Assembly (NCBI GenBank): GCA_903836515.1
Contig: CAILQW010000040.1
Span: 34,207 to 98,206, forward strand
Reading direction: 5' to 3'
DNA: 64,000 bases
Source of the DNA: Candidatus Omnitrophota bacterium
GTDB lineage: Bacteria > Omnitrophota > Gorgyraeia > Zapsychrales > Fredricksoniimonadaceae
Part shown: positions 15,182-47,786 of the stretch, piece by piece
How the letters are laid out: each line of letters begins with the position of its first letter
Numbering within the stretch: position 1 is the stretch's first letter
Program-made: the position numbers and the translations under genes
The notes under the pieces: model-generated
The model's database searches: none
What the model saw: the letters and a program-made list of their open reading frames with translations, nothing else
What the model was told of the DNA's origin: nothing

Positions 15182-18100
15182 TCACAAAGTGTCCACAGCC
15201 CCGTCCTTGGACTTGGCTGGCAGGCGGGAATCCTGGAAAGAAACGGCAGGCTTCGCACTGCCGCCCATGATCCACGGGAATCTTGGCTTTAACAGCAACG
15301 GGTCATCCAGCAACACAGGCGCCCAAGCGGGTGTCTCATTCGTTTTCCATATGCTCGGAGCGCTCGGCGGAATGATCGCCGTCTTGCTGTCAGCAGGTGA
15401 CGGCCTGTCCGTCACGATCTCTCCCGGGTCATCAATCAACCTTAGTTTGCTATCTGTCTCATTCTCGAAAGTGCTGCCATTGTCTTCCGCAGCACTGACA
15501 GGGCGGTGGATAAAGACGGGTTCCGGCGGCTTGGCATCGAGCGGATTGCCCGGCTTCACCAAATCTTCGGGAACCTTGTGATCCGGATCAAGCCACCAGT
15601 AACGCGCATTAAACACCGCCTTCTCCTGGGCCGTAGGCTCAACGTCCCTGATGCTCCGGCTCAACTTCAACAGCTCGGCCTGCAGCTGCTTCACCTTGAT
15701 CTCGCGACGCCTGTACTCGCCGATCAGTTTACGGGATTCCAGCTTGATGGCCAGCGCCTCGTCATCGGGCGCAACCATACGGCGTTCACGTTCGGCCACG
15801 GCCTCGCTCTGATAAACAACCTGGCCTTTTTCATTCAGGGCATATTCCCACTTGGCGAGGTATTCCACAAACTTCTCTCGGGTCAACTTCTTGTGGCGAT
15901 ACCGGCGCAGCATGGTCTTGACCGCCGGATTCAAATGCTTGATCACAAGATCCCCGGCATTCACCACGCCATACCCGAAGGACGAATGCAGCGCGGCCAT
16001 CACCTTGGCCGCACCAGCCTTGCCCAGCGCGATCGTCAACACTTCCTGGACCACCGGCAAGCGTTCAAGGATCGACGGCACCTCTTTGATAATATCGCGC
16101 ACCAGTTTCGTCACATCATCCTCACGCCCGGCCAGTTTGGCCAGGACCGTAATAGCCTTGTCCAGATCCGCCTTCAGCGCATTTTTGACAATGGACTTCC
16201 GTGCCCCCGCCACAATAGTACCCAACAGCATCAACGGATCATTGGTGTACTTCTTCAGATAAAACGCAAACCATACCGGATCATCCATATCAACCAGCTG
16301 AATCCCGCATTTAAGCTTCTTGGCTGAAGTGGCCGACGTGCGGAAGGAGGAACCAAACTGGTCCTGGTCTTCCGGCGATGAAATATCTTCTCCCCCGAGA
16401 ACCGCCGTAAGCATCGAATAGCGTTTCAGAAGGCCAATCTGTTCCTCCGTTGGATTCTCGCTATCAAACGCTGTTTTAATATCTCTCAGGCGTTTCAACT
16501 GAAGATTGGTCAACGTTAAAAGTTGCGCCAAGCTGGCCCTGACAACCGCCTGCGCCCGCCCGGCATCCAGGCGTCCCGTATCAATGCCCCTGTTCCTTAA
16601 AAGGACATCCGCAACCTCAAAAAAACGTTGGCGCGCCTGCGGATCAGAAGGCGTATTGCTACTCAAGAAATCTTCCAGCATCTGAGGTGTCGGGATTTGT
16701 GTGATGGTGGTAATCGTGCGTATGGCCGGCTGGACAAACGGCTGTAAAGAGTACCAGGACGGCGCAACGGGTAAAGTAGGCTTGGGCACAACCGGCAGAA
16801 TCAACGCTGGCGAGGCGGCAGGTTCAGCAGAAGCTGCCGCTTTCATCGCATTACCAAGAACCCCTTTCCTGAAGAAGTTCTCAACCCATTCAAACCAAGA
16901 ATCCGTCCCAGCCTCACCATGATCCACAGCCTGGGAATGATCTGCCGCCATAAAATGACAGATCCTTTCAACAGCTTGTTGACGGATATCCGGTTGCGTG
17001 ACCACGTCTGTCGCCGCCTTGACAAGATTCTCGCGTACCGACCAAGACATCTCCTTCAGCTCGCTTTCCTGTTCCAACGACATCCACTCCACAGCGAGTT
17101 GCTGCTTGTCTTCCCCACTAACGGCCCTCTCCATTATTTCTTTACTCTTGTGCTTTCTTTTCTGCGCCAAGGTATCTGCCAATCCTTCCTGTAATATCGC
17201 CAAATAATAATAAATATCTCCCGAAACAGTCTTCCTGGATTTCTCTATCCCATCGATAAGAACCTGTTGCTCACCAATGCCATCTCTTAATAATTTCTCT
17301 CCCCCTACCGACTCTCCTGAACGTTGCTTTTCAAGCGCATCAATAACTTTATCTGTAATATTCTTGCTTTCCTCACTCCCCTTCCCCGCCCCAAAATTAA
17401 ATTTTGTCAGCAGTTTTCTCCCTTTGGACAGAGGGAATAACTCGCCAGCCTTGGCATCAGCAGGCACAGCCCCGGCAAAAGCGGCCACAGCGGCCATTTG
17501 AACACGAATTCTTTCTTCATCTTCCAATGCCACAGGAAGGATTTTTTCTTTATAAGTTAACAAGCTGATCGTTCCTTCGGCAGAAATCTTGACGCTATTT
17601 TCCGGTACTTTATCTTTTTTCTTGTCTGTATAAATAAATGTTCCATCACTGTTTTCCTGGGGCCGCTGATCCGTTTCGGCAAAAATCAATCCGAGCGCTT
17701 TCAGCTTCAAAGGATCATCCCAATATTCCGGACGATCCATAGCATTCTTTGCAGCCGCGTGCACACGAGGATCCGTTAAATTTTGACCTGCCTGAATCAC
17801 AAGCGTCTGCCGTGCAAACTCAAGACACGCACGTTCAATCACCGGAACAAGTGCGGCCGTCAAAAAAGCATCCACAGGCGTTTTTTGTGTGAACTCATCC
17901 GGCAGAGGAACAAAAATATCTTCATCCGGCAAATGAATACGGGCCATAAAGGGACCCTGCTTGCCATCACCGACCACCGCAACCACTTGTTTCAGGTGCT
18001 CGGCGGATGCGCCCGCCACAGCAAGCTTGGCCAATGTATTAAGCACTTCTTGCAGACGTTCTCCCTGCCGGGTAAGCCACCGCGATTCGGCCTGCCCCTC

Positions 18101-21100
18101 GGTGATATTATCCATCGCTTTTTCAAGAACCTCGGCATTTGAATTCTTCACGACCTCTTGATACGCGATCATTGAAGCGCCACCCTTGGCTGCAAATAAC
18201 GGGAGGGTAACAACAACAGCCCCAGGTAAATACCTGGTGTTGTTGTCGGTCTGTACTTTCCACTGCGCCACAACTGCCTTAAGGGCTTCCTGCGCCTTGT
18301 AACTGTCCGCTTCAAAGTGCGCCACCGCCAGGGTGCCTTCTTTCCCTGACTGGCTGGCCGCCAGATAGCCAACGATATCCCCTTTGGCATCACGGACCAC
18401 AAGGTTCAACGCATCACTGCTGGACAAGAGATCTCTGATCTCGTCGGCCTTCTTCGTGTCCGGATTCTTCTTCTGATACCGGGCCACAAGATCCTTGATC
18501 AAATCCCCATCCTGATGACCCACCGGCGTCACCGTGTAACCCTTGGGAACATGCGGGGCAATATTCTTGACAAACTTGTCCTTGTTATCGACGAACTGCA
18601 TCGCAGGGGTTGTCCAGGTAGCCGTCGTCCCGTTCAGCGACGCACCGATCCTGGACTGTACCGCATTGAACCTGATCCAGTCAATGGACACCTCCTCGGC
18701 CTTCTTCTCATCCGGCAAATTGATCTTCCAGGTCCTGTCCGGTTGTAATGCAATGTTACCCACCTCACGCAATTCTTTCTCAATATCATCTTTCTTTTCT
18801 TCCGGATAATCTTTCTGACGCTGCGCTACAATCTTCGGATCAATATAGGCTGTTCTTGCAACCACCCTTTTCATCACATCGCCTTCTTTTTCAACGTCAA
18901 TCACCGCACAGCCCATGACCTTCATTAACCTGTCGGCACGTTCAATATACGCTGCATCCGTCAGCCCACTTAAATACTGATCCACCATCTGTGTGAGCTG
19001 TACCGTCTCGGCAGGATGTTTCTGGGATATCATCCCCAGAAGCGCCGAACGCCTCGACATCTTGGCAGACTGTTGAGCCGATGACTTCAATATTTTCAGC
19101 ACCTCCGCCTTACGTTCCGCCGCCGGAATATCGGCAGAAATATAAACTTCCTGGGTATTCTTTTCACCTTGCACCGTATAAGGGATCGTCACCACGACAT
19201 TCTTGGTATTTTCGGTCACAAAACTGGCAATGTCTTGCGTACTCTCAACCACCTTGATCGCCTGTCGGAAAGAGAATTCGGACGCCTGCGCAAAACGGGT
19301 CATGCGCGCAATGGTTTCCGTAATGGCCCGGGCATGATCCCTGGCCTCACGGATATCACCCGCCTCGTACGCTTCATGCAAAAACTGCATTTTACCCTTA
19401 AAAACAAACCCGGGGAGAACCTTGTTGGCCTTCTCCAAAAATTCAGTAAAATCCTTATGAAGAACATCTTTAAGAAATTCCGGGATTTCCGGCTTACCAT
19501 CGGGCTTGAATTTCATACCGAACATTTCCAGGTAATGCGCAAAGATCTCTTCATTGGAGAATTGCTCCCAATAAATATCTTCCCCCTGCCCCAACAGTCG
19601 TCCGATAAGGTCGTAACGCGTCAGGCGTGACTGGACAAACGCACCGCCTTGCCCTCGCCCCTTCATGACTTTGTTATATTCATGGAACAGTTCGTGCAGG
19701 AAAACACCCGCTTCATCGAACTTGACCAGCCCCTTGATCAGCGACAGCCCCAGCGCCGATCCCAATTTGAAGTGATCCTCTGTCGACTGGGCCGCTGATT
19801 TAGCCGCATCCAGCGCTGGATCAAGAAGCAGGTCTTTATTGAATTCCTTTTTTATAAATCCAACGATTTGCCCAAAACTGGCGGCTCTTTTTCCCAACGG
19901 CACGCCCTCCGGCGTTTCTGGTGTCTCATCCATCGATTCCAATTGAACCGCATAGCGCATGCCGGACTGATGCGCGATCTGGCCAAGCGTTGCATCCTTG
20001 TTGACCGGAGTACCTTTTTCAGTCATGGGGATAACACTCGCTTTAACGCGGAACAAATTTGCATATTGATTCACTGACGCAGCGTAATCCATAGCCTGTT
20101 GACGCGACGCCCCTTGAGTGGCCAAGAACGACTGGTAATCACGCGTTAATTTCTCCCCGACCCTGACCTGCTCGGCCATAGCGCTTTCAAACTCTTCGGC
20201 GGCCACAGAATAACCGTAGGCGTGCTTAACCAGTGTCATGTTCAGGCTCTCGGCCTTGTCCTTGATCGCTGCATTATCCTCAAAATTGTAATAGTAACCA
20301 TTTTTGGCCGCATCCCACTGCCGGACGAAAATACGGTCATCCCAGAACCAGCCGATACGGGACATGTTCCGGCTGACCATCTCGCCGGTGGTGTTATCGA
20401 TCGTGGCTCCCTTAAGATCGAGGCCAGCCCCAGCCTCGGCCCCTTCCGGCACGCCACCCATGATCTTGAACAGGCCCCGTTGGTACCCCTCTTCCAGTGA
20501 CGCGAACTTCATGCTCTCCTGGCCAAAAGCCCGCGCGACCTTGATCTTGCCATCCTCCCCTTTATAAGCAACCTTGACATTGGCAATATCGGTGGCCACG
20601 ACGCCGTCTTGGGCAATATACGAATGCCCATCCCGGATCACAACGCCTTTGCCGTGCACCACGAACATTTTCTTGCCACCTTCTTCATTATAATAACCGA
20701 CCTTGTCGCCCTTGGCGATCTCCCTGCCGTTAAGAAGAATCGGCGCCTCATTGGCCACCTCGGCATCGGCCATCACAAGCTCGGGGCCTTGCATCTTCAT
20801 TTTTAATTTCAGACGCAGTTCATCGCGACGCATATCCGCATGCTCGATCTTCTCGCTGACCAGTGCTTCAAATTCAAACAAATTATTGTTCTTCAAAGCG
20901 CTTTCTTTCATCTCTTCTTTAATAGAATTCTGGTACAAAACCCCTTCGAACAAAACCCCGCGAACATTCTGCTGGGCATCATAGAATGCCTGATACTTAT
21001 AACCTTGTTTTGTCCCGCTGACCGGCGTCACCAGTTCTAAGCTCTCTGCTTTGCCCAAGCCAAGTGCCGCTCCAATACGTACAAGATCCTCTTTTTCTAT

Positions 21101-24100
21101 GCGCTTGAACTGATCCATTCCTTTATACAGATCATTCTTGAAATAACGCGTAACCTGGGGCACCTTAACTTTGTTGCCGTCAGCAACCACAACCATCATG
21201 TCCGTGGTGACCTTGACCTCGACATCCTCTCCGTTGACAACCTGTTCGGCCGGGACCCATGTCCGGACCATGGGCGGCTTGTCGCTGGCCGTATCAGGAT
21301 TAACCCTGTAGTCCATGACAAGCCACTGCTGTGTTGGCTGTTCAATCGCCTCGCCCCTGTTCAAACGATCCATGATCGTCTGCTGGGACATATCCGTTGT
21401 CGGCGTGTAAACCCGCATCGTCTCCCCGCTGCCGCCGGTGGGCACCCCAATCTGCCCCGGCGCTAACTTGATATATCCAAACTCATCTTTAATGCCTTGG
21501 CCATTCTGCAAAGTAAAATCATACAGATGCATCACATTTTTGCCATCCTGACTCATCCGCAAAGCCTGCCCGCCAGCCCCATTCACACCATCCCAGATCC
21601 TCGCGATCCCGTTCTCCTGAGCAAATTCTCTGACCATATCCGCCCGCCAGTCTTCATACATCCGCTGGAGATGCTGCCCCATGGCATCACGGTTAAGCCC
21701 TTTATCCACAGAAACGCTCTGCACAAAGCTTTGCTGACTCTCCTCCTGTTGCAGCCTCTTCATGATCTGAACAAGCACTTTGAATTCTTCTGCTGTGCCT
21801 TGCACGCTTCTTAAACGATCTCTGTCCGGGTCAATCAACCGCGGATCACGGTATGCCCCGATATTCACAAAAAGCTTATAGTCGCTGGAAGTTCTGTTCG
21901 CGTTGTCTTTGATCTCGGTATACTCGCTCTTGATCGAATCACCGCGTAACATTGACTGCAGGGCTCCATACAGCGCGCGTACATTAAAATCGTAATGCGT
22001 CAAGTGCCCGTCGAATTCAAACGAAGCTCCTTCCTGGCCAGCGGACAGAAAGATGATCTTTTTACCGTCCAGACCACCTTCAACTTTACGACCAAAAGCA
22101 TCGGTCATCTCCACCCGGTTCACATCATAGTAATTCCCCTTGATATCTTTGCCGACCTTCCGTTTGAGCGCCTCAACTCCCTGGTTAAAGTTATTCGCGT
22201 CATAATGCAGAACCACAACATTTTTATCATTCTTCAACGCCTGAATATCCTGATGATCAATCGCGGCCTTGCGATCCTCCGTCAACCCTTGATTAATATA
22301 TAATACCTCAGTACTTGCCGGTCTATTAGGATCCCTAGGGGCCCTCAACCATGCCCTCACCTGCGTAGCAATATCCTCCCCCGGTGCACCCTTAACCAAC
22401 TCATGCGTCCAGTTCACATGCTCGAGCGTGATCGCCGTCCCAAATTCATGCATGTAAATGCCATACGCCTTGGCCAGATCATGCACCGGCTCCGCGGTTC
22501 CGGTCACCCCGAGCCAGCTGCCCATCAGCCCCAGGGTTTCCATCGCGGTCACCTGAACATGGTTATTGCGATCCGTCAGCCGAATAAACTCTGGCAATGA
22601 AACCGTCTTGTTTGTCTTGGCTTCATGCAAGCCCACGATCATGCGCATAAATGAATTCAAGCCGGTTTTGTCTGTGAAAACACGGTCATACGCCTCGGTT
22701 CCAGAAAGGATGTGCTGGATCGTGACCAGATCAAACGTTCCGTCAGCTTTAAAAGCCGCTCTGAACTTGTCCTTCCACAGCTCATTCTTCAGCGCCGTCG
22801 CCGCCGCATCCATAAAGATATCCCAGCGCCCATCGGCCAGTTCCGCGAATGCTTTCGCGTCATTCTTCATTTTATTCCTGAATTGTTCCTTGAAAATGTC
22901 CTGGATGCCGCTGGCTTTAGACATCTCTTCCGAAGAAACCTCACGATCCATCAAGACTATCTTGCCGTCTTTAACTTCAAAAAGTTTATCACCTGATTCA
23001 ACATTCTTAACATCAATCACCTCGCCATCCCGCATCCAGATAAACTTCTTCTCCTCGGAAGTGCGGAACTTGATATCTCCTGATCTTTCTTCCTTAATAA
23101 AGGCATCAATGACAAGAGCCATAGCGTCAGACTTTTTCCCGGCGAAAGCGTTGGCGACTTCCAGGATGGTCTGCCCCAACATCCGTCCTGTAATCTGTTC
23201 CCGCGCGCGCTCCATTAATTTTTCCGTGGTCATCTTCCGCGCCACGGCAAAGGAATCAGTGGCATCAGAGGTAATCATGGGCACCGACAATAGAATCTGA
23301 TGGATCTCATCCACCACGCCAAGATAATCCTTAAGCGGATTCACCTTGTCAGGATCACGGCTATTCTGATAATCAAGTGAAATCTTTTGCAGTTCCTGAA
23401 AAGCCAAAACAGGAACCTTGCCTTTATTCTCCGGCAATGTCAAATCTCCGGGCACTTTATATCGAAAGAATCCTTCCCGGTTACCCGCTGCTTCCGCCAG
23501 GGTGACATTGGGTTTGATATTCATCACCTCTACCCCATGCTCCCGGGCATACGGCGTAATGAGGTTGATGATATACGGCTCCATCTTCGTTTTACCGCCA
23601 GCCATGGCCAGCGACAACAAAACCCCGTCAATGCCCCAGACCACCCCATTGGCTTTCTTCTCTTCTATTCTGTCAATCAGATAAAAAATATAATTCAATT
23701 GATGAAAAACATATTTGATCTGATCCGGTCGGCGATCCCAATTTTCCTTCTCTTTCAAACCTCTCAATATCGTATCTGTATAGTCATAAAGTTTCTGATG
23801 CCTGCCTTGCAATTGAGGCGCAGGCGTCTTCCCCCTCTCTTTGTCCACAGCTTCAGCATTGTCTATCAAAATAGCCAGACTGGACGCGTCTTTCTCATTC
23901 AATTCCTTGCGTTGCACCTTGGCGTCATGATCAACGCCGGAAAGCATGGATTCCTGCCGCGTCCTGTCCGTCAGCCGGGCCGCAAAAAGACCGGCCTGAT
24001 CTTGCCCTAACGTTTTATGCAAGCTTGTCAGGATCTCCCGGGCTTTTTCCCGCATTTCTTTCTGCTCGTTAGGCTTTTCATCATATCCAAACTTCTTAGC

Positions 24101-27100
24101 TTGATCTTTAATGCCATCCCAACGTGTGCTCCCGATACCTGCCGGATTCTGAATAATCTGAACCGCATCCCTGGCCAAAGCCAGCAACTTCTGACAATCT
24201 TCTTTTTCCATGATCACCACATCACTCCCGGGATCCAATGACTCCAGTCGTTGATACAAACTTTGTAAACGTTCCGATATCTTTTCTATTCTTTTAGCCG
24301 CCCTCTCCTCATTGTCCAGTGGGCTGGACAAAACAGAATTAATGGAATTTTGAAGCTCTTGCCGGATCCTGAATATATCAACAGCCGCCTGCTCCCGAAT
24401 ACCCTCTGTTACCATTCCCTGTAACGCCGCCCGCTGATCCCGATATGTTGTCGCCTGCTGAAACTTGGCCATATACCCATCCAAGGGCTGATCTGCAAGT
24501 TCTCGCATGGCCTCCAATCTAACCGCATACGATGATTCTTGTTTAGCACGTTCCAGATGCTCCACTGCGCTGTCCCGATGTTTATCAGCTGTATCAGGTT
24601 CCCTCTGAAAATCATATTCTTGTCCCACAAGCCTTTCCAAAATACCACTATATAAGGACAACAATCCTGTTGGATCTTTGTACTTATTAATGTCTGTCTT
24701 GATAGCCTCAATATTCTGCTTTAACAACTCAATACGCCCTTTACTCACATCCTTCCTGGCACCCTCATTATCCAACTTCTTTTCTTCAAGCTTAATATCA
24801 TTCTGGTGCATGGCGGAGCCATTGCGCTCCATCTGCGCTGCCATAAAAAGACTTCGGACAACTTCCTGCTGGCCGGGATCCTTCACCAACGCTACCATGT
24901 CATCGATCAGTGTCTTTGAAGAATCTTCTGTCTTTGCAGAATTCTCGGTCTTTTTTTGTTCGGACAAATCCTTTTGAGCCCACAAATTCTCAAGCTGCTT
25001 GACCCCACTCCTGACAAACCATTCCGTTGCCGCAATCTGGTCCCGGGTCAATTGCTTCCCAACTTCCACCATCAATGCTTTTTCTGCCTCATGGATACGC
25101 TGGTCGATTAACGACGCATTAGCATCCTTCTCTTTTTCTCGTTCTTCTTTCAACGCTTTCCATTCAGCCACTTGTTTGGGAAACTGCTGTAAAATCGTGT
25201 TCATTAAAATTTCATCAGCTCCAAAATGCAGCGTCGCCCTGTCTTCTTTTGATAATTGGGAATACTCTTTCTTTAAATAATTTTCTACCAATCCAGACCA
25301 CCGGGTATTATCTAAATTAGCTGTTGCAACATCAACCTTGGCTTGCAGATCACTTATTCTGTTTAATTGCGCCTCTTCCTGTTTGGCCTTGGCCTCCAGG
25401 CTCGACACAAACTCCCCATACGCCCTCTCTCCCAATAATTCTCTGGCCTTTGCTTTGGCTTTCGGAGATGCCTTCATTTGCTCCTGCATTTTTACATAAG
25501 ATTCATTCTTTAAAATTTCCTGCAGTGTATATAAAATGGCATCTTCAGGAGAAACAGCCTTCTTGATATTCTTAGTACTATCTTTGTCAGTATTCTCCTC
25601 GGATGAAACGCTATCTTTTGTGTTCTGGCTCTTTGAATTCTTTTTGCCTTCCACCTCTCTGGCTGTTGTCACTTTTTCTTCAAGTGACGTCTTTACCGGA
25701 ACACTCTGCCGGATCTCCCCCAAATCATTCTTCGCCGCATCAAGCTCAGCCTTCGCCTGACGCTCAGGAGCCTTAAGCCGAACCACCTTCGCCGCATTCC
25801 CATATTTATTAACTACCAAATCCATCATATCCTCTGCCAGCTCAGCCCGTCTTTGAGATATCTGAGTGATCGAAGAGGATAATTCTTTTAAAAATGATTG
25901 GGTTTCAGTTGGGGAAAAATCAGACGTCTCGGAAGAAATTCTCATGCGCGAGGAAGATTCATTGGCGCTGCCGGTATCCTGCGTTTTGGGCGGCGCCTGG
26001 GCAGCATGTTCTTGCCCAACCTGAGGACGCACCTGATCAAAAGCAGAATCCAAAAGGGGTGTCAGTTCTTTAATGACACCCTCGATCATAGTACTCTCTT
26101 CAGCACCCACCCCTTTGGATTTCACATACTGTTGAGCAAGATCCCGCAATACTTTTGTATTCTGAATTTCTTTCCAATCCCTGGCCATCTCGCGCGTTAT
26201 ATTGTTCTTTCCCTCTGATGCGCCTCCGGCAAGATCATGCGAAACAGATTCTTGAACCAATTGAGTAAACCAGCGCAGGACTTTTTCTTTGCCTGTAATT
26301 TCAACATCAAGATCATTTATTGCCTTTAATTCCACATCGGTTTTCTTATTCTTGCTCTCCAGGGTGTTACGTTTTGCTTGAAGTTGCACGATCTGCGCGC
26401 TGTCGGCCTGTATCTTCCGCTCTGCGAGCGCACGGCCTTGATAATGTTCAGCCCGGGCAACAGCATCACCCTTCTCTTGCTCCAAACGCTCAACGTTCCG
26501 CTGAGCCCGCACTACCTCTTCGTACTCAGGCCCTGCCTGCCGTGACACATCCTTATTTCCTGGAGCAGAAATTTTTTCTACGTCTATCCCGGCTTGCTTG
26601 GCTTTTTCAACTTTTGCATTCAATTCATGCAAGGCCAAGATGCGTTCCGCATCCACGCGTTTGAGATCCGCATCCGCTTTGGCCGCTTGATAATCCTTGA
26701 TCGCCAGTGTTTTTTGATCGGGCGTCTTTGCGGCAGCACGCGCGATCTGTGCCTGACGCGTCAACACCAAACTTTCATTGACTTCAACCAGCCTTGCCTG
26801 CTTAGCGCTCAACTCCTTCGCCAGATCAACAGGATCCTTGCTAATTTTTTGCAAACCATCCAGTAATCCATTAACGGTGGGTTGCTCCGACACAACCTGC
26901 GGCGATTTTTTCGAAACATCGGAATTCGGCGCCTCAATTCTCACAACAGCTTTAAAATTGATAAGATCCATCAATAACTGTGCCCGTTCTGCAATCAAAT
27001 CCGTTAATTCTTTATTAACCGGCGCATCTTTCTTGCTGGATATGGCTTCCATATTCTTGACCAACTTCTGCGCGGTATCAATGGAAGCATTTAATCGTGT

Positions 27101-30100
27101 GATATTTTCAGGCAATAAAGCTGTAAGCACACCCTTGCGCGCCTCAAGCTTACTTAATATTTCCCCTATTTTAGGAGCTTTAACCGGATCATTCGAAACA
27201 GAATCAAACCTTTGTTGAAACTTATCGATCAGATTATCTATCTTGTCAATTCTTTCCCGAATGATCGGCTCCGCCATGTGTGCCCCGGCTTCATTGATCC
27301 TGGCGTCCAAGACAGAGCTTTTCGCCTCGAGTTTCGCGTAGACTGGCGATTCTTTTGCATCTGAAAAACTGGCCATCTGCTGCTTGACCTCTCGATGTTC
27401 TTGCTGCAGCAACCCCATTTGTTGCTTTTGCAAATCGAAAATCTTGGGATCACTCTGATCCCTGCCTTCCCGCCAGGCAATTTCCTTTTCAATATTTTTA
27501 TGCTGGGCATCACGCGCCGCCCCAGGATTGGCGCCAGGGAAAAAAGCCAGCGAATAAAATGCTATTGCATCGGCTGTGTCGCGATCAACTCCCAGGCTCG
27601 TAAGCCCTGCCTTAACCACAGCCAGTTTCGAGGCCGTCGTGGGGATGGTATGCGCCCAAGGGTGGGACAACACCATTTCCAGCGGCCCGCCGCCGGAAAT
27701 GCCAAACGGGCGCGATGTCACGCCCAGCATGGGCCCCAGGGTCATGCCCATCTTAAAGCCGCTGGCCATGCTGGCAATGGACGCATTCCAAAGGCCTTCC
27801 TTACCCGTAGGCCCAAACACCGCTTTACGCGCCTCACTCCAATTTTCCTTATCCGGCTTACCACCTACTATCCCTAAAGAATACTTTGCTTTATTGAGAA
27901 GGTACTCTATGCCTGCCGTAGCACCATTGAACGCCGGCATGGTCCAAGCAAAATCAGCACCGCTGATCAACCCGGTCTTCCAGATAAGATCAGGATTCCT
28001 GGCGAAGGCTTGAAGTGATACGCGTTCTTCGGAAATTCCCAGCACTGCCCTGGCCTTAAGCATGCCGACATCCCGCCAGCCCTTCATAGCCAAAGCGTTC
28101 GCTGCGCCAAAAAGAGCATATCCGCCAGCTTTTTCCCAATTAATATCACGACCGGTCATCACATCATCAAACATGGAAAAACCGCCTCCGATCGACCCGC
28201 CAACCAACGCGTGTCTGACATAGGCCGCACGAGGTGCCCCCGACCACCATTGTGCTAAAGATGACGGCCGAACACCTGCAACTTGCAATGGGCCAGGTCT
28301 CAACAAAGCACCCTCTTCCCTTAAAACCTTCCATTCATTGCCAAGAGACTTGACTGTCTCAAAATTCTTTATTTTTTCTCCCAATTTCACGGTCATCTTT
28401 TCCGTAGAATTCAAAACAGGTGTCAACTCCACTTTATTCTCGGCAACTATAAAATTCAGCCATTTCCCGCTGGTGGCGAACATGCTCCCGCCCAACGCGC
28501 CAGCGGTAACACGTAGAATGGTTTTCTGAAGCCCGTTATTGTCAACATGCTGTGATGATTGACCATAATAATCGCGGAACTGCCCCCCCATCAAAGATCC
28601 CCCAGTATAAGCAATCGCATTACTGATGCGATGGGCAACAACATTTTCCGGGTTCAAAACGAACTCGTGATACGCCTTATTCATTCCTTTAAACTCACCC
28701 CCATTGATCTTTAACCCCTTCAGGCCACCATAAACACTACCGATCACATCACCCACCACAAAATCCACTATGCCACGACGCCATGTCCAGGCCTTCTCCC
28801 CAGGCATTGTGCTTTCCAAATAGCCATTAAACGTATTAATTATCCCCATCTGCACACCCGAGATCTTGGCAGGATTAAGCATTAGCCTGGCCCCGAATGC
28901 TTTTGCTCCGGTTCCTTCAGCGGTCTTGGCTAATGCCGCACCCCACCGTTCCATGCCCAACGCCGTAGCTCCCATAGCTGTGGCGCCAAAAGCCAACTGA
29001 AATTGCCCCCCAGTTCTCCCCCAGGAGAGCCCATTCGCTACGGCCCGATCGTAACTGACGGGATTTCCAGTTAAAAGATCCTGCCCCACAGAAACGACCG
29101 TCCCTGCAGCGAAATCAGCAGCTATAGCTCGCCCGACGGGAACCAGCCATTTGGTCATGGCTCCGGCCCCACTAATAGACCGCGTTCCCATGGAGACCGC
29201 TTTAGTGGCTGCCAGAAACAGGAATGGTGTTGAAACAACATCGAACGTGGTCCATCGTCCTGGATCAACAACACCTGCAATGGCACTCATTTGATTGTCT
29301 TTCAACCAACGGCCAACACCTGTGGTTTGTCCCAACACAGCTGTTGTAAACGGTGTATTAAGTTCTCCCTCTTTTTTTAAATTTAAATCTTTATTATTTA
29401 CTTGATAATAATAACCATCTGGCATTTTTATTGTTGAACCATTGGCTACAGATTGCATTGTTCCGGTAGAATAATCTAAAGACCAAACGGCTTGAGTTCT
29501 AGCGCTCATACGATTTTGTAAATTCATCGCCAATGTTGTGTATTCAATAGGTTTAAAAACCTGATCGTATGGCACTGTGTTTTTTAATGACGCACCGAAA
29601 TCAATTGTTCCGTTCTTATTGAGAAAAATTTTAGTGCTAATATTTTCTAAATTAGATGGTATGGCTCGTGTATTATCAGCAGAAAATACACGGTTTCTTG
29701 ATAACCCTGAGACACCCTCAACTCTTTTAAATATCCCTCCTATTTTTAACACTTTTTCGAACGGCACAATAAATCCTGCAATGCCTTCTTTTATACCCTG
29801 AAAATCTGTCGCCTCTTTAGGCCTTAATGTCTTAATATCTAATTGCCGTACTTGTACAACCTGCGGTCGCCCTGTATTCGGATCATATTTCCCAAACTCA
29901 ACGCTACCTGCCTGAACAATCTTTCCTGTCGTATCTTTCTTTTTAAGAATAACTTCTGTTGATACTTCTTCATTAAATATTAACTTATTTACAATCTTTT
30001 CTCCCAAGACATATGGATTCAAATACATGGAGAAATTCGTGACCGGATTTGAAAAAAGAGACAAAACATCTCCGAAATCAAATTTCTTTGAAATCTTGGT

Positions 30101-33100
30101 TCTGGATGTCGCATCAAATTCTTTTCCTGTAAAATCATTTGAATTCAGCGTTACTTCTTCAAAATTTCTGACAGATCGCACATTCTTTGTATTATACAAA
30201 TCAATAATTTTTAATTCCCAACCATCTTTCTTGACTAAATACCGCCCAGCGATCGGTTCAGCCGTGAGACTGTCTTCCTGCTTCCATTGCTTCCCGTTCA
30301 CTTTGACAATATTATATTTATCCTCTCCGTCCTTCCCTGCAGTAACATCATACGTCACATTCCCGTCAAAATAATGCGTTGTAACCCGCTTACTACCCGT
30401 CCCGGATTCTGTTAACGTCAACGGCTGTAACAACGACCAGAACTGGCCAACTCCCTGATAAACCAGCGGCATTTTAGTGGCATTCACCAGCATAACATCC
30501 TCTTTCATGCTGGCAACATTGCCGCGGGCAAGAACCTCTCCTTTGCCGCTCCCAGTGATCTTATCATTCGCCGGTACAACAATTTGCCCATCGATCATCA
30601 TGGACGCGCCGCCCAGTGAATTCATTCCCCATCCATTAACTTGAGCATTGTACAGTTTTCGTTGAAAAGCCGTTTGAATGTTCCCGGTAACCACAAGGCC
30701 CGTCAACCCTTGAGGAAGATCGCCTCCAAACACAACTGAACCATCCTTATTGACCCGACTCCACCCTGTCATGTTCAGGTTATAATGCATCCAAATACCA
30801 GTAAAAGGTGTTTGTTGCGCAGGGAATGCGCCCGAAATAGAGGCTCCGCCCCCTATATTCATCAGCGTTGACCCTGATTGTTTATTGTTTATATTGTTCA
30901 CGATCATATGATCCAGCCCAAAGAACGACCTCGAACCATTGGGCATATTAATAACCCCCATGAACGCACCCGGCATATCAGAACCAAACTTCTGGAAAGA
31001 ATCCAGCGTCACAACCCCACCACCCGGAGTCTGGATGTGTGAAGTCTGTCGTGAATTCACAAGATTTGTCGTAGAAAGCCCGTCCATAACAACGACACTG
31101 GCAGCATTGGGATTAAAATGCATAAAAGGGTCATTCGCAGATTTTGTGAACTCAAAATAAGAATTATTAAGGGCTTGCTGATATGTATTCAATTGACCCT
31201 CAGGATCTACGCCCCCCTCATTATAAAGCCCCTTAATATGTTTTGTCTGATATGCATACCCCTTTTCCCCTTCAAGAAATGTGTTCCCATAAATATAATG
31301 TGAGATCGCTGCATCAAACTTTTTCCCTTCCGTTAAAACACCTTCTCTAAAACCGGTTGTGGCTAGAATGATCTGCTGATTCATGCCTAGTCGATCAAGT
31401 TCTTGTGATGTATATGTCCTTATCCCTTGTGGACTAAAGGCCCAAATGTTCGGTTCAGTAGCCGTTCCACTACCAGCACCATCTTTCTTGTTCAAAGGTG
31501 AATTATCCCTGGGATCCCAAGTCAAAGATTCCTTTGGCTTGTTTTCCGTTCTAAGCTTAAGATCCAGCCCTTTTCCAATCCAGGTAAAGCTGGCCATGTT
31601 GATCCAGGCCCCGTTTGCCTGACGGATCTTGCCGCTCACACTGATGTATTTATCAAGTCCATTGCGACTATTAACATCCATGTAAAGCCCGCGTTTCACC
31701 GCAGCCGGGCTCAACATGATCTTCACGGCCTGCTCCTTACCGATCTCTCCATCTTTACCTGGATCCCCGTTATACCCCTGGGACAACTCCGCGGCCAGGC
31801 GCTGAATGCCGCCCCAATACTGGCCTGTCCTGAAAATCGAAGCGTGGGTGAGCTTGTTGCCCGTCGTCAAATTCTGCTCATACCACGTCCTGTCGCCCAC
31901 ATAAAGCGAGCCCGTATCCGTGATATGGAGATGAATATCCTTGGCCCCAAAGCCGCGATAAAGCTTGGGTGAAAAAACAAGATTGGTTGTGGGATCAAGA
32001 TGATAGGGTGTCTTGTTAAACTGCTGCGTTTTTTCATTAAACTCGCCGGAATAAATATAGTGAACGCTGGTGAGCAACGGCGTCATCTGGCCGCTAAAAG
32101 GGTCGTCGGCCGTGAACGCGACCTGGCCGTTAAATTCTGTGGAACCATGACCGGATTTCTTGTACAAGAAAACCTTGCGCACAGGATTATTCTGGTCGCC
32201 TTCCGTCCCGTAACTTTTCTGATCATACAACTTAAGGGTTGATTGCGGATCTTTGATCGACCCCATGGTCCCGCTTTTTTTGCTATCGGATTTGGCACCC
32301 AGAAGAGATTCCGAATAGAATGTAATATCCTCCGATTTATCCTTGGCTGTGAACAAAAGCTCCAACCCGGGAAGATAAACACCGTCCTTCTGCCGCACCT
32401 TGAAGGCAACATTAAGTTCTTTCGTACTCAGCTCGACTGGTTTGCCATCAAAATCCCATTTTTCCCCCTTCACCCCCTCGATCGTGCCATTACCCCTGCC
32501 CTCGACCAGCGGCGACATGGTCCAGCCGGAATTCTCATTAAAATAAGATTTACTGATATCTGTCCCGACGGAATTGACCGCGCCAAAGGAAACATCCCCC
32601 CGCGCAACACCTTCGCCCTTAAAACCGTTGTGCTCATCTTGATATATTTCTTCAATCTTTGCCCCATCAAGATATCCCATGACCGGCTGACCGGATTGAA
32701 TATTCCCATGCGACGCGTCTGCCACCTTAAAAGGACGGGTATAGACTTCAGGTTTGCCATTGGTTGTGTCGAGGATCAGATTCCGGGCAAAGCGCTCATC
32801 CCCCACGCGCCCGGCTGTATCCAAATATTCAAATACGCCCTTGGTGGCCTGGATATTGGACTCTGCCAGGAAAGCAAGCTGGCCTTTTTCCTGAAACTTT
32901 TGCGTTCCATCATTATTGTACCCAACAAGGTCCTTGGCCGCAAAAGCCTCAACCAGCGGATTCCCATTCTTGGCATACGACAAATTAACGTACGATGCGC
33001 CCGCCCCGGCTGTCTGGCCATTAAGGCTCCAGCGCCCATCTGTATCAAGACCAAGAACCCCTGGATTAAGTTGCGCATACCCGTAAAGAGCGCCAAAAGA

Positions 33101-36100
33101 ATCCGGCATCAACTGCCGTTGCGCCACGGTATTATTTAAAACAGGTTCGCCCTCCCCATTAGGAAGTAACGGCGAAGCGAATTGTTTCGGCAATGCCTGG
33201 ATTTCACGCGAATCCCCCATGGTGTAAAGCTCGCCGCGGGCATACTCCAGCTCTGGCGTTTTAATATAATTGCCTTTTAAAGAATCATTTAAATGCTGTT
33301 GCCATGAATTGGCCACTGTAATCGAAGACCCTGTGTTTTGGTCTTGCGCTGTTCCCGTATTCCACAACGGGGAACCCGACGAAGTGTCCCCTAGCACTGT
33401 GCCGTAGGCTAAAGGTGACCCAAGTCCCGTTTTACGATCTGCCGATGTGCCTAAATGAAAATCTTCGAAAGACGTTGTCTCGGGATTTGTAACCAATACA
33501 TTGGATGAACTGCGCGGAACCCAGGTCGTTGTGGTTACTTCTTTCCCACCCAAGACAATCCCTGTTTTTGCGTACGTCGCTTCACCTATAACCGGAGCCC
33601 TGCCGCGGCTAAAACCATAAAAAGATGTGTTCAGACCATCCAACAACAAAACATCCTTTTTACCCTCAGGAGTCATCGCGACAATCTGACCACGATCCAA
33701 CGTTTTTCCCGTAAAATCCTTGGTATACGATAGATTGAAATCCCCCACATCTTCCGCCAGACCCACAATCCGCGCCAGGCCGGAAACGCCTCCGGTGCGG
33801 CCGCCACTGACTTGAAACTGCGTGGCATGACCAGCGGCATCCCGTTGCCAAGAGCCCTGGTATTGAACATTCGTAACGGGATTCTGCGCGGTAAATGCCG
33901 TACCGCCGCCAACATTGTCGTCGGTGAGCGTCACAAGATAATATGGATTGCCGGAATTCAGCGAGCGGAACCTGTTGCGTGTTATGGCCTTGGTATCAAG
34001 AACGCCTTGACCATCCTGATTCATCAAGCCGCTCACATTATCAACCTGAACGGGGCGATTAGCCTCAGGCAAAGCCTCCAGTTGCGCAAAAGCCCGGTAG
34101 GTAAAACCAAGATTCGTGTAAATCTTGCGTGCAAGGCTGTCGCTCTGAACCGAAGCCAGGTAACCCGACGCCACATTTTCAAACCCGCGCTGCGTATTGC
34201 TCACAATGCCTTTCTGCGCCATCGAAGCAATGTAACTGCTGCTGATCATGCCGGGATCGATCGAATCAAAAGTTGTCGCCAGCAATTGCGCATATAACAC
34301 ATCCCCGGCCAGCGCCCCGGGCTGCAGGGGATCCTTAGCATGGGTGACAGCCATTTTCGCATTGTCTACCTGCAAGGTATCCCATTGTTTCTTCATTGAT
34401 AACGCCCATTCCGGCGTAAACCCGGTGATTTGATCCAACGTTGAGATCGCCAAACTCGCCGCCGCCATGCGTTCAGGCGCTTCCCGCCTGGTATCGGCAA
34501 AAGTACTCATGGCACTGGTTCCCCAGAAATCCGCCTGAAACTTCTGATTACTATCCCAAAATTCCTGTGTAGTCGCATTCATAAACCGGCTCAAAGGGCT
34601 GAGGCTGATACCGACATTAGGATCGTAGGCATCACTGGTATTGGCTATCCCATAAGCACTCGAACGCCCGGTGTTGGTATCGTTAAAATTAAAACTGGGT
34701 TGTGCAGGATCTTGCCCTGAAAAATTGGAACTATACCCCACAAAGCCCCGCGCCTTGGCGCTTTCCTCAATATCCTTGCCAGGGCTGAACAACGCATCCG
34801 CACCTGCCAAAAGGGCCCCCGAAAGAATCGCTGATGCTTCAAACACAATCATGTTCCGCTGGGCCTGCGCCGCCTGCTCATTATGGGACAAATTCTTCTG
34901 ATCAGATGTCACGGCCAACGTAATCAAGGTTGTCACCGCGGCCTGGCCAACCGTTTTAAAGAAAGGAGCAGCTTCATTTTCTTGTTTTTGCACCAGCGCT
35001 CCCAGCGTGCGCGCATCCTCGGAACTTAAATTTATTAATAAATTTTTCTGTTCTGGCGTTGCGTTTTCACCAGCCTTCAAGGCAGCAGCCGCCTTGAGGT
35101 TCGCCTGCATAAATTTTTCCTCAGCCTGTGAAAACGGAGACACCCCCACCCAATTCCCCACCATGCCCCCCATCTGCTTGCCAAACAGCCCAAGGACCTG
35201 CGATCTGGCATTGGCGTCTTTATCATTTTCTTCTCTGAACCCGTTGGCCGCGTAACGCACCACCGCAGAAATGGCATCGCCGATCACCGCTTTACGAAAA
35301 CCCGCGCTTGTAAATGCATCCTTGGGAGATAACGCTTTACCCTCGGGATTCAATATGGTCTTGGGATTCATAAACTCGGAAAAAGACATGGCCGGCCTTT
35401 TCTCCGCAGAAGATGAACTATCCTTTATGGAAGAACGACTATTCGTTGTAGAAGGCGAACTCAGCGCCGCGACAATCTGGCTCGCCGCCACATTCGTTCC
35501 ATAATCAATGACAGATGACGCAACCGCGTAACAAAAGCTCTTGGCAATAGCCTGGTTATCACCCCACACATGATCCAGCCACTTGGAAACCTCATACATG
35601 GCCAACCCTCTGACCGCGCCGACGATCGCGCCGGTCGCCGCGGCTTTGGCTATTTCACCCACGCTTAACGCCACGGTCTGCGTGGCGGCGTTCTCAAGTG
35701 CCGTTTGCAGTCCTGCACTAGTTAGATCTTCACCCAGGGCTGTAGCAGTACTCTTAATCTCATCCATTGCTGGATTCTGTCCCGCCTTGGCGGCTCCTTG
35801 GGCATAATTGTACCCGTACGTCAATGCCGCATTTAACGCCGTGGTTAAAATAAAAGCTGTCTTGGCACTGCAATTCCCGGTAACGTAACACGCAGACCCA
35901 ACAGCTTGGGAAAACTGCGATGCTCCAAGGGCAAACGCGGCATCAAAACAGTTTCCGCCCAGCAAGAGCGTCGCTCCTATTTGAATACCAACCTGAAGCG
36001 CAATCTGCCCCAATGTCACCAGGCCCGGCAAATCACTGGATCTGTTACGCCAGTGGTCACCCCAAACAAAGGCCTGCATGGCCTCAGGCACACGCGTGAA

Positions 36101-39881: not shown

Positions 39882-40787
39882 TTAAGACCCACCTGCCATA
39901 TTTTTCAACGGATTATTGTACATAAAATCAAGGAAGATCGGCGCGCCGACCAAGATACCAACTACTGGAAAAATACAAAAAAGGAGCGGCATTAACATCT
40001 TTAGCGGCGCCTTAAGGGCCATGGCCTCACCCCTGCGATAACGCGCCATACGCATGTCTTCGGAAAGAATGTTCAGGGCCTCACTTACAGACGTCCCCAT
40101 TTTATCAGCCTGGATCAAGGTCCTGGAAAATGTCGAAAGGTCGGGGATCTCGTACTTTTTCGCCAGATCGCGCAGGGCATCACGCCGCGGCTTACCTACG
40201 TTGATCTCCTGCAGGACGTTATTCATTTCGCTCAAAAGAAACGACGGACTTGATTTTTCGACCACCCACTTGAGCGCCATCATGAAGTCGAGCCCCGCAT
40301 TTACGCAAAGGCCCAACAGGTCCACCGTATCGGGTAACTGTTTAACAATGCTTTCCTTCGCCTTCTTGATCTTGCCGCGCAGCCAGAATTCCGGCAGAAA
40401 ATACGCCCCCCCGATCGATACCAGAAACCCAAACATCAACAGATCCTTGTTCAAAAAAGTAAAAGCTGTGTAAAAAAGAAAAATAAACAGGATTTCTTTG
40501 ATCAGCAGGAATTCTTCGGGAGAAATGCCTGTATGCGATACCGATATATTTTTCAGCATGTTCCGGCGCATGTCCTGGTTAATCAAGGGCTTGTTTAAAA
40601 CCGACATTCCCCGCAAAAAGGAAGAAACCAGGGATTTGCGCTCTGTCTTTTTTTTGGTCTGCTCGGAAGAAACGACCCCAAAATCATGCATTTTCAATGT
40701 CGGCCTGGCATCAAGGACATCCATCTTGACACCCATCACCACAAGCATCCCGCAGGCCACAATAAAAATAAACGCGATCGTCAGCAT
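39882..40787 (-). CDS. tadC: Flp pilus assembly inner-membrane platform protein TadC (GspF/T2SF family).
   Basis: 301 aa and multi-TM with the T2SF-like architecture. It lies immediately downstream of its paralog tadB (10-nt gap). Confidence 0.75.
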   Translation of the reverse strand: MLTIAFIFIVACGMLVVMGVKMDVLDARPTLKMHDFGVVSSEQTKKKTERKSLVSSFLRGMSVLNKPLINQDMRRNMLKNISVSHTGISPEEFLLIKEILFIFLFYTAFTFLNKDLLMFGFLVSIGGAYFLPEFWLRGKIKKAKESIVKQLPDTVDLLGLCVNAGLDFMMALKWVVEKSSPSFLLSEMNNVLQEINVGKPRRDALRDLAKKYEIPDLSTFSRTLIQADKMGTSVSEALNILSEDMRMARYRRGEAMALKAPLKMLMPLLFCIFPVVGILVGAPIFLDFMYNNPLKNMAGGS

Positions 40788-40796
40788 GGGATCCCC

Positions 40797-41654
40797 CTAA
40801 TCATTGAACGAACTGATCTTGATGATCAAAAATGTGCCCAGCAGCCACAGCCCGATAGAAACCATCATGAGCATCCGGCCAAGCTCGGTGGTGATCATGA
40901 CCTGAAAATATTTGGGATTGGTGGCATTGACCATAACAAAGAATGCCACCGGAAGACCGCTCATGACCGCCGCCTGCAATTTTCCCTGCACCGTCAATAC
41001 CATCAGATTTTCCTCAATTTTGCGCCGCTCGCGAATGGTCCCGACGATCCTTGAAAAAATAAGGGGAAGATTGCCGCCCGTTTCACGCGAAAGAAGGATG
41101 GCGCTGACCATCTGCTGCATGGCCGCGGAAGCCATTCTCTTGTACAAACGGTTCAACGCCTCATCAAAAGAGACACCCATTTTATTTTCACCCAGCACGA
41201 TCCCGAATTCATGACGGATGGGATCGGGCATTTCTTCAACCACCGCTTCCATGGACTGCACCAGGCTCATGCCGCCCCGCAGGGAACTGGACATGATCAT
41301 GAGCGCGTCAACAAGCTGGACATCAAATTGCTGTTTACGTTTTTTAAGAAGGCTCCCGGCATAAAGCCTGGGCAGGATCAGCCCTACCACGAATCCGCCC
41401 AAAAGCCCCGCGAAACGAAATTGCGTATCAGAAAAAAACATAAAACCCAGCACGGCGCAAATGAACGGGGCGATAATATACAAACGCTGGACAGCCTGGA
41501 TGTCTTCGGCGATCATGGAGCGGTCCATTTCGCGCGCAAAGTCCCTGGCGCGCTTCTGGTTCATTTCATGAACGCCTCTGACCGTGACAGGGATCACAAA
41601 ATAAACGCACAAGACCGCACATACAAAGATCAGGATAAAAATGACAGGAAGCAT
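40797..41654 (-). CDS. tadB: Flp pilus assembly inner-membrane platform protein TadB (GspF/T2SF family).
   Basis: 285 aa. An N-terminal TM precedes a cytoplasmic helical domain (ALMIMSSSLRGGMSLVQSMEAVVEEMPDP...GENKMGVSFDEALNRLYKRM) and C-terminal TMs. Confidence 0.75.
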   Translation of the reverse strand: MLPVIFILIFVCAVLCVYFVIPVTVRGVHEMNQKRARDFAREMDRSMIAEDIQAVQRLYIIAPFICAVLGFMFFSDTQFRFAGLLGGFVVGLILPRLYAGSLLKKRKQQFDVQLVDALMIMSSSLRGGMSLVQSMEAVVEEMPDPIRHEFGIVLGENKMGVSFDEALNRLYKRMASAAMQQMVSAILLSRETGGNLPLIFSRIVGTIRERRKIEENLMVLTVQGKLQAAVMSGLPVAFFVMVNATNPKYFQVMITTELGRMLMMVSIGLWLLGTFLIIKISSFND

Positions 41655-41669
41655 AGGATCATTTCTGGC

Positions 41670-42005
41670 TTATGGTTGGTTGCTGCAGGCTGCCTGACAG
41701 CCTGTCTTTACCCCGTCAACACACGCCCGATAGTCGGCCGCTCGCTTGCACGGCAGGACTGCGTTATTATAACAGGCCTGCGCGTACCACACATTCAATT
41801 GATCATCATACGCGCACTCAATGGTCGCATCGGGATTATACTGCCGTAAAAACCCGAAAGTCTCCGACACCTTGCGGTACTGCCCCTGCAATCCCCGCTG
41901 GATATAACTGCGAAAAGAAAAAACAACCGCCAATACAATAATGATCAGCACCACATACTCAAGCATGGCGAACGCTTTCTCTTGTTTCCAACAGGCCCCT
42001 GGCAT
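41670..42005 (-). CDS. Flp-type (class III signal peptide) pilin paralog with a Cys-rich C-terminal extension.
   Basis: Start taken at MMGAAMPGACWKQEKAFAMLEYVVLIIIVLAVVF. AFAMLEY fits the [GAS]-x4-E-[YF] Flp processing motif followed by a hydrophobic helix. The C-terminal half has 8 Cys (ECAYDD...QACYNNAVLPCKRAADYRACVDGVKTGCQAACSNQP). The longer ORF-track start at 42143 is rejected. Confidence 0.55.
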   Translation of the reverse strand: MPGACWKQEKAFAMLEYVVLIIIVLAVVFSFRSYIQRGLQGQYRKVSETFGFLRQYNPDATIECAYDDQLNVWYAQACYNNAVLPCKRAADYRACVDGVKTGCQAACSNQP

Positions 42006-42016
42006 AGCGGCTCCCA

Positions 42017-45079: not shown

Positions 45080-45093
45080 AGAAAAATCCTTGT

Positions 45094-45342
45094 TTATTTC
45101 TTATATAGCAATGTATCCATTGTCCGAACCTCGTGAAAATTCGGATTCACCTGCTGTTCTGTGGTCAAATTCTTGTTGCTCAAGATCGCATCATGATCAT
45201 ACCGCCGTTCCGCCATATCCATCATGCCCCAGCGAAAAACCTCGATCATGCCATAAACGATCAACGACAGGGCGATCATGCCTGCCGTAAATTCGAGGAT
45301 GCTCTGGGCTTTGTTTCTTTTATTAAAAAACACCATGCTCAT
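45094..45342 (-). CDS. TadE-like minor pseudopilin (82 aa).
   Basis: KRNKAQSILEFTAGMIALSLIVYGMIEVFRW matches the TadE-like N-terminal hydrophobic domain. Its start overlaps the upstream gene stop by 4 nt. Confidence 0.6.
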   Translation of the reverse strand: MSMVFFNKRNKAQSILEFTAGMIALSLIVYGMIEVFRWGMMDMAERRYDHDAILSNKNLTTEQQVNPNFHEVRTMDTLLYKK

Positions 45343-47129: not shown

Positions 47130-47131
47130 GC

Positions 47132-47455: not shown

Positions 47456-47456
47456 A

Positions 47457-47786
47457 TCAATCCTTGGTGAAACCCATATTGGTCTGCGAATTTGTGGACG
47501 TTTCCGTCCGCTCAAGAACCGCTGACGTGATCGTTCCGCCGTTATCGCCGCGCGTATTATCCACAGCGCCATGCGTTGACGTATTCGAAAATTCAAGATA
47601 GCCGCTGGTCCCGCTTGTCAGGTCCTGTTCAGCGTTCTTCTGATCGCCGATCTGATCTGCCGCCACCTTGATCATGCTCTGGGTTGTCCGCTTGACCCGC
47701 GGGAACATGTAAACAACCGCAGCCACCACCATGGATACCAGCAGGGCATATTCCATCAACGATTGCGCGCGGCGAGAAAAAAACAT
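47457..47786 (-). CDS. Flp-type pilin paralog.
   Basis: MFFSRRAQSLMEYALLVSMVVAAVVYMF... Confidence 0.7.
   Translation of the reverse strand: MFFSRRAQSLMEYALLVSMVVAAVVYMFPRVKRTTQSMIKVAADQIGDQKNAEQDLTSGTSGYLEFSNTSTHGAVDNTRGDNGGTITSAVLERTETSTNSQTNMGFTKD

Follow-up and report, generated by a model that had tools for sequence, protein, structure and literature searches.

Can a membrane protein of 7,270 residues carry a working motor ATPase in its interior, and if it does, to which class of motors does that ATPase belong? The question is raised by a giant open reading frame (ORF) in a 64,000-nucleotide stretch of DNA, here called the window, from a Candidatus Omnitrophota bacterium (GenBank assembly GCA_903836515.1, contig CAILQW010000040.1, positions 34,207 to 98,206). 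The initial annotation, made from the letters of the sequence, had placed a P-loop ATPase core resembling SecA or the helicases of superfamily 2 (SF2) at nucleotides 22600-23700 of the window, on account of a Walker A motif and a DExH-type Walker B motif about 98 residues apart. Both motifs are present in the same ORF, separated by 97 residues, as are the flanking strings quoted with them (GGKTKMEPYIINLITPYA and VDEIHQILLSVPMITS). Of the motor, this interval covers no more than RecA lobe 1 and the larger share of an inserted domain; the remainder runs on to around nucleotide 21830. We consider it likely that residues ~4440-5055 form a SecA-like motor of the SF2 class, driven by ATP and handling polypeptides; its ATPase activity, its location, its substrate and a role in export are what we infer for it. 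It is not a canonical SecA.

Motifs, conservation and predicted fold of the motor

The Walker A motif, AMAGGKTKM (residues 4463-4471, nucleotides 23582-23608), has its GGKT core at residues 4466-4469 and is predicted to lie between a beta-strand (residues 4457-4461) and an alpha-helix (residues 4467-4485). It misses the strict PROSITE P-loop pattern, [AG]x4GK[ST], by a leucine in the first position; the equivalent MRTGEGKT of E. coli SecA has a methionine there and so misses the strict pattern too. The Walker B motif, VVDEIHQ (residues 4560-4566, nucleotides 23297-23317), which across the family reads DEIH, DEVH or DEMH, is located on a predicted strand (residues 4557-4562), followed by a second strand (residues 4573-4576) that forms the stem of an insertion of about 235 residues. 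This insertion occupies the position of the preprotein-binding domain of SecA. Its amino-terminal half is of variable length and poorly modelled (predicted local distance difference test, pLDDT, 34-63); its carboxy-terminal half is conserved and contains the stretches DGxFDLVTI, RVxTD, GLNAxMKMI and EYIRLTERNxH. The chain then comes back via a strand predicted at residues 4812-4815 to motif III, GVTGTAE (residues 4829-4835); the return strand and TGT are 16 residues apart, as they are in E. coli SecA. In the second lobe, a motif-V-like strand and loop has the pattern G(Q/E)(E/S/A)G(A/S)(S/N) across the family (LSAGQEGAS in our protein), with no arginine in any member, and the sequence HYDFNVR...Q5013..R5017 corresponds to motif VI by position only. 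Of helicase motifs III to VI, for which the initial annotation had proposed to look downstream, motif III and putative counterparts of motifs V and VI are in this way present, and they are conserved in the family.

When 1.84 billion representative proteins were searched exhaustively with phmmer, using residues 4400-5599 as the query, 12 relatives were obtained. Two of them are full-size giants, P0001 (5,340 residues, 44% identical over the whole query) and P0002 (7,335 residues), the others being fragments, and a metagenome scan contributed one extra locus, L030. A scan of the genome collection with the segment returned no relatives, the exact 8-mer peptide patterns that it employed being too strict for a fast-evolving sequence. 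Conservation over the catalytic sites was assessed in eight sequences, seven of the relatives and the metagenome locus; identity within the family is 25-46% overall, with a background of around 30%. The Walker A region retains S4461, L4462, M4464, G4467, K4468, T4469, M4471 and E4472 in all eight, and the Walker B motif with its stem retains D4562, E4563, H4565 and the complete stretch V4571-S4576 (VPMITS). Also invariant, just before or at motif III, are R4805, T4807, H4812, Q4814, T4816, E4819, G4832 and T4833, and the TGT triplet is found in seven of nine sequences. Because the active-site residues are invariant against such a low background identity, the sequence comparison excludes chance and argues for a working ATPase.

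The structure of residues 4400-5099 was predicted with AlphaFold2 from a ten-sequence alignment (model 1; mean pLDDT 71, predicted template modelling score, pTM, 0.49). Confidence differs between blocks: mean pLDDT is 72-87 in lobe 1 as far as the Walker B strand, falls to about 47 in the stem and reaches 77-94 in lobe 2. The model shows the strand-loop-helix of a P-loop, the Walker B strand and two alpha/beta lobes, so that both RecA-like lobes which the initial annotation expected of a structure prediction are present. When model 1 is compared with the PDB using Foldseek, structures of SecA and SecA2 take ranks 1-13 (entries 1nkt, 1tf5, 3jv2, 2ibm, 1tf2, 6itc, 5eul, 6t4h, 6sxh, 5k9t and 1nl3), with E-values of 9.2e-9 to 2.0e-7 and a probability of 1.00, followed by DinG (2.9e-7) and then XPD and MDA5. 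SecA came first in both structure searches, of which the Foldseek search is one. As far as a predicted structure goes, the assignment of two tandem RecA-like lobes with the SF2 fold is secure, and membership of the SecA subclass is probable, being the best-supported reading by a modest margin. Of the core proposed by the initial annotation, the SF2 part therefore stands firmly on motifs, conservation and fold, and the SecA part stands as probable.

Probable kinship with SecA, and the alternatives

Canonical SecA and SecA2 (for example 1nkt, 1tf5, 3bxz, 2fsf and 6t4h) are the top structural match by two methods and share the order of elements with our motor: motif I, motif II, stem strand, inserted domain, return strand, TGTA motif III and lobe 2. 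Local echoes in sequence are found in the Walker B motif with its stem and in GLH(Q/E)A...TGTA. The former stretch is set on SecA residues 202-232 by both BLASTP and hhalign. A weak colinear match leads from the helix after Walker A through Walker B and the stem (E. coli SecA residues 115-239) and is taken up again from GLHEAK...GVTGTAE (SecA residues 352-395, GLHQAVEAKE...GMTGTAD); this weak alignment pairs PYIINLITPYAREHGVEV of the giant protein with PAYLNALTGKGVHV of SecA, and VVDEIHQILLS---VPMITS is aligned to SecA as well. The insertion is placed by hhalign on SecA residues ~330-360, without significance. For comparison, a set of 14 diverse SecA and SecA2 sequences was taken from the plasmid collection and from E. 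coli. In hhalign, the family scores 27.8 with E. coli SecA (P 0.022) and, as controls, 21.0 with DinG (P 0.14) and 17.2 with RhlE (P 0.32); when its N-lobe is set against the alignment of the 14 SecAs, P is 0.006 across 52 columns. The ranking of SecA above DinG and RhlE is suggestive of kinship, not proof of it.

Several results weigh against kinship with SecA. The initial annotation had proposed a check with Pfam profiles and had taken a lack of matches as evidence against its reading; strictly read, the outcome comes close to such a lack. The query matches none of the Pfam models DEAD, Helicase_C, ResIII and SecA_DEAD at E-values up to 10, and the one match in the family is that of ResIII to a single member of ten (E 1.6e-5). 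Neither the query nor any family member matches PF07517, PF01043 or the NCBIfam SecA models, and NCBIfam and PADLOC searches of all family members returned nothing useful. Searches of the PDB, by phmmer with three segments and by hmmsearch with the family profile, gave noise only (HasA, an LPXTG protein and G-alpha-s), and the profile search brought up no SecA. Comparison of hidden Markov models with sequences, family against the 14 SecAs and in both directions, gave about 0 bits, and hhalign of the family with SecA, be it a single sequence or the 14-sequence alignment, is colinear at a probability of 2-6%, which is not significant. The insertion does not match PF01043 and is modelled partly at low confidence, which makes it no more than a putative preprotein-binding domain (PPXD); part of its ~235 residues is unrelated to SecA or unmodelled. 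The Walker B box is DEIH, of the DExH type, where SecA has DEVD, and motif V lacks the arginine of the SecA sequence GRGTD.

The part that follows lobe 2 also departs from SecA. In a second AlphaFold2 model (model 2, m0341d537c82c; residues 4850-5400, pLDDT 80, pTM 0.77), lobe 2 is followed by a short hairpin of two helices, 29 and 23 residues long, and by a beta-rich domain, which replace the scaffold, two-helix finger and wing; none of these three elements of SecA was found after lobe 2 in model 2 or with Foldseek. Foldseek relates model 2 to generic SF2 carboxy-terminal lobes, with Cas3 first (4q2d, E 5.6e-4), then RapA, CHD4 and Fun30. Taken alone, lobe 2 is thus nearer to Cas3, RapA and CHD4, and SecA is found at rank 14 only (E 0.034), which together with the hairpin and the beta-rich domain argues that no SecA-type scaffold or wing is present. 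Homology among the relatives runs on past these elements to residue ~5923. Unlike SecA, moreover, the motor is fused within a membrane protein of 7,270 residues. As it is located about 4,400 residues from the amino-terminus, it would be of no help in the co-translational export of its own amino-terminal half, and any self-export would therefore need to take place after translation or in trans.

The alternative that survives best, which we regard as unlikely but serious, is a DExH nucleic-acid helicase or translocase, similar to XPD/DinG or to the DEAH/RHA proteins and acting on DNA or RNA instead of on a polypeptide. Both groups, like our motor, have two RecA lobes and a DExH Walker B motif, and their structural scores follow so closely behind those of SecA as to be nearly tied; in XPD and DinG (Rad3-like), motif II is likewise separated from motif III by a large insertion, and the arginine-less motif V would suit a helicase. 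However, SecA is first in both structure searches and occupies 13 of the 13 top Foldseek places, and in hhalign the family scores better with SecA than with either DinG or RhlE. Motif III of XPD/DinG and of the DEAH/RHA proteins is SGTL or SAT, whereas the motor has TGTA as in SecA, and its stem strands follow those of SecA at identical spacing. There is no cysteine at residues 4470-4560, between motifs I and II, and thus no 4Fe-4S cluster or XPD-type Fe-S domain. No helicase accessory domains were detected, and the query is without PADLOC or helicase Pfam matches. The host, finally, is a membrane protein encoded in a secretion locus, and sister giants contain SecA_DEAD and SecA_PP_bind domains that Pfam does detect.

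Improbable to a further degree is a degenerate fold, derived from SecA or another SF2 protein, that no longer turns over ATP and whose task in the conserved cytoplasmic part would be to give structure or to sense nucleotides. Such a loss would go with the extreme divergence of a domain that no profile detects, with the missing motif-V arginine and with the very long branches on which the SecA domains of giant proteins are placed (West-Roberts et al., bioRxiv 10.1101/2023.11.21.568195), but Walker A K/T, Walker B D/E, motif III and motif-VI Q/R would hardly be invariant at ~30% identity. That P-loop-like and DExH-like strings arose by chance in a very long, compositionally biased protein, as its 7,270 residues, the P-loop off the strict PROSITE pattern and the lack of profile matches might suggest, is ruled out by the invariance of the motifs in the relatives and by both structure searches, the predicted fold being that of a two-lobe SF2/SecA motor; the protein contains only three GK[ST] and one hhDEh[HD], and a pair of these 60-160 residues apart occurred in just 14 of 2,000 shuffles of its sequence.

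The giant protein, its neighbours and its published counterparts

Table 1. Features of the giant protein and of its locus (nucleotide positions in the window; aa, residues of the giant protein)
Feature	Position	Strand	Basis
Giant ORF, 7,270 aa, enclosing the motor and all protein parts listed below	15182..36994	-	ORF list and translation
N-terminal hydrophobic anchor AIAFVVICIFIPDQVSWAF, aa 50-68	36791..36847	-	mean Kyte-Doolittle 1.93
Peptidase C39-like domain, aa 209-287	36134..36370	-	Pfam PF03412
Module common to all relatives, aa ~4385-5923: motor and ~870 aa downstream	19226..23842	-	phmmer
Putative SecA-like motor, aa ~4440-5055: RecA lobe 1, insertion, remainder of lobe 1, RecA lobe 2	21830..23677	-	
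Walker A / motif I SLAMAGGKTKME, aa 4461-4472	23579..23614	-	8/8 conserved residues, model
Walker B / motif II VVDEIH and SVPMITS strand into the insertion, aa 4560-4576	23267..23317	-	
Insertion of ~235 aa between motifs II and III, aa 4577-4811	22562..23266	-	alignment and model
Return strand HVQVT and motif III GVTGTAE, aa 4812-4836	22487..22561	-	family alignment
Motif-V-like strand and loop KIIFLSAGQEGASF, aa 4979-4992	22019..22060	-	G4977 and G4989 invariant; model strand aa 4979-4984
Motif-VI-like HYDFNVRALYGALQSMLRGD, aa 5000-5019	21938..21997	-	H5000, Y5001, F5003, Q5013, R5017 invariant 8/8
Predicted two-helix hairpin after lobe 2, aa 5067-5124	21623..21796	-	model 2 helices, residues 218-246 and 253-275
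Predicted beta-rich domain, aa 5130-5355, where SecA would have wing and scaffold	20930..21607	-	model 2 strands, residues 281-506
Tad-type secretion/pilus genes upstream: RcpC, secretin-TonB_C, CpaE-CpaF fusion, several unknown ORFs, two T2SSF (TadB/C-like)	39882..56732	-	Pfam

The identical 7,270-residue product is encoded on a separate contig of 123.7 kb in ENA/NCBI, so the giant gene is not an assembly artefact. The protein has one strongly and several weakly hydrophobic segments: the anchor near the amino-terminus is its sole strongly hydrophobic 19-mer, and weaker, Gly/Ala-rich hydrophobic clusters are located at residues ~320-735 and 2580-2640. Pfam searches with its halves, with ten pieces of ~787 residues and with segments of 801 and 301 residues gave nothing beyond the C39 domain, for which PF03412 reaches E 1.3e-5 and 25.5 bits against a cut-off of 22 in a 757-residue piece, and E 2.4e-4 in a 4,000-residue piece. 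A charged stretch (residues ~3250-4400, 31-34% K, E, R and D) precedes the motor, forming a linker of ~1,200 residues that is probably helical. Because the motor is carboxy-terminal to the hydrophobic clusters and to this linker, and because it needs ATP, it is most likely cytoplasmic; the surface location which the initial annotation presumed for the protein thus probably does not apply to this part.

When the whole protein is compared with its relatives by phmmer, residues 28-474, 2690-3321 and 3793-6506 are conserved, corresponding to the anchor with the C39 region (kept in P0002 as well), one hydrophobic cluster region and the carboxy-terminal part that contains the motor. Residues ~520-2600 (nucleotides ~29195-35437), unlike the motor module, show no similarity between relatives by phmmer except for a marginal 12-bit match at residues 2116-2269, a pattern consistent with a fast-evolving, exposed part. 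About 700 residues past the motor, the protein has its sole HExxH sequence (residues 5767-5771, nucleotides 19682-19696, reverse strand; AGVFLHELFHEYNK). It is kept as AVFLHEL[VI]HE[YW] in P0005, P0008 and L030, while P0001 and P0002 are without any HExxH. The site, at which Pfam gives no match, may belong to a zincin-like metallopeptidase.

GyrA assigns the window to Omnitrophota: the copy encoded there shares 94%, 92% and 90% identity with those of metagenome-assembled genomes of Ca. Omnitrophota/Omnitrophica. The giant gene is found at the end of a Tad-type secretion operon and is followed by sugar-uptake genes. Directly downstream (4617-12944, reverse strand) are genes for a GH94 protein (cellobiose/chitobiose phosphorylase-like), an ABC sugar-binding protein, two permeases and a TPR-GH2 protein, which fits the published tie of giant genes to carbohydrate uptake. 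No SecYEG genes are present in the window.

The Tad-type cluster, in which the two T2SSF (TadB/C-like) genes occupy 39882-41654, has some peculiarities of its own, all of its ORFs described here being on the reverse strand. A 725-residue ORF (51964-54141) combines a ParA/MinD-like (CpaE-type) ATPase (residues 4-240) with a T2SSE/CpaF secretion ATPase (residues 365-642), and the secretin ORF (PF00263, 54151-55884) ends in a TonB_C domain (residues 489-566), an unusual fusion for a Tad-type secretin. Four ORFs in or near the cluster are without a Pfam match, at 37416-39662, 42017-45079, 45339-47129 and 49684-51525, with sizes of 748, 1,020, 596 and 613 residues, respectively. The 748-residue ORF, which immediately precedes the giant gene, recurs unchanged on 11 contigs that come from several samples. 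Where the unknown ORFs occupy the centre of the cluster (around positions 48000-52000), the G+C fraction is 0.39-0.44, compared with about 0.50 elsewhere.

The initial annotation had called a motor inside a giant protein unexpected; such domains had already been reported. Giant proteins of Omnitrophota have been described as containing "divergent SecA DEAD helicase domains", with SecA_DEAD and preprotein-binding parts, without scaffold and wing, and on very long branches; they have amino-terminal C39 peptidases, their genes are near genes resembling those of type II secretion systems (T2SS) and near carbohydrate-import genes, and the SecA-like domain has been proposed to aid export of the giant protein itself (West-Roberts et al. 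2023, bioRxiv 10.1101/2023.11.21.568195). A 2026 preprint reports a 20-protein PF07517 architecture cluster and lists giant genes that are flanked by Tad cassettes and GH2 genes (bioRxiv 10.64898/2026.06.07.730766). Our locus matches the published description feature by feature, and its kind is already known: phylum, C39 domain near an amino-terminal anchor, SecA-like motor past the membrane segments, absence of scaffold and wing, and neighbours of T2SS/Tad-like, carbohydrate-import and hydrolase type all agree. It differs in size, 7,270 residues against the examples of more than 30,000 residues emphasised there, and in that its motor escapes PF07517, PF01043 and any other Pfam or NCBIfam model and belongs to a family of its own with 12 representatives. 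What is new here is a motor that every curated profile fails to detect, in a very small family of its own.

A further large protein with an embedded SecA-like motor was encountered outside Omnitrophota. An 8.8-kb gene annotated as 'hypothetical protein' on a 13.8-kb plasmid of Legionella geestiana (L044; NZ_CP041715.1, record 453-9296) encodes a divergent SecA-like region with 25% identity to E. coli SecA and a TGEGKT P-loop.

Proposed role and significance

If the giant protein contains a SecA-like motor, ATP would be bound and hydrolysed in the cleft between the two RecA-like lobes by a catalytic set comprising K4468 and T4469 of Walker A, D4562 and E4563 of Walker B, the TGT of motif III and Q5013 and R5017 of lobe 2. 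The ~235-residue domain, carried on a two-strand stem (PMITS leading out and HVQVT leading back) at the place of the preprotein-binding domain of SecA, would clamp a polypeptide substrate. Tethered through the long charged linker, the motor would most likely stay on the cytoplasmic side of the membrane. Its most likely task would be to help export or insert stretches of the giant protein, or else a partner protein, and it might do so in trans on other copies. The Tad-type system encoded upstream or the Sec channel of the cell itself might be its partner machinery.

Omnitrophota giant proteins are believed to let the cell attach to the surfaces of prey or host cells and degrade these surfaces. 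The present case leaves the general published picture of these proteins unchanged and adds that a SecA-like motor is also found in a mid-size giant that is otherwise blank in Pfam, its amino-terminal C39 domain alone being detected. As standard annotation misses the motor here, the published frequency of motors in giant proteins is probably underestimated. The compact conserved module, with its catalytic residues defined, is suited to expression and testing. A bolder idea, to which we give little credence, is that the 12-member family is a separate, unrecognised SecA-derived lineage, re-purposed to supply or remodel polypeptides, without recourse to SecYEG, for the Tad machine or, in trans, for the giant protein. 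The DExH box, the lack of a motif-V arginine, the enlarged substrate-binding insertion, the conserved hairpin with the beta-domain and, in some members, the HExxH module could be the marks of such a lineage, which, if real, would represent a new type of built-in engine for export or remodelling.

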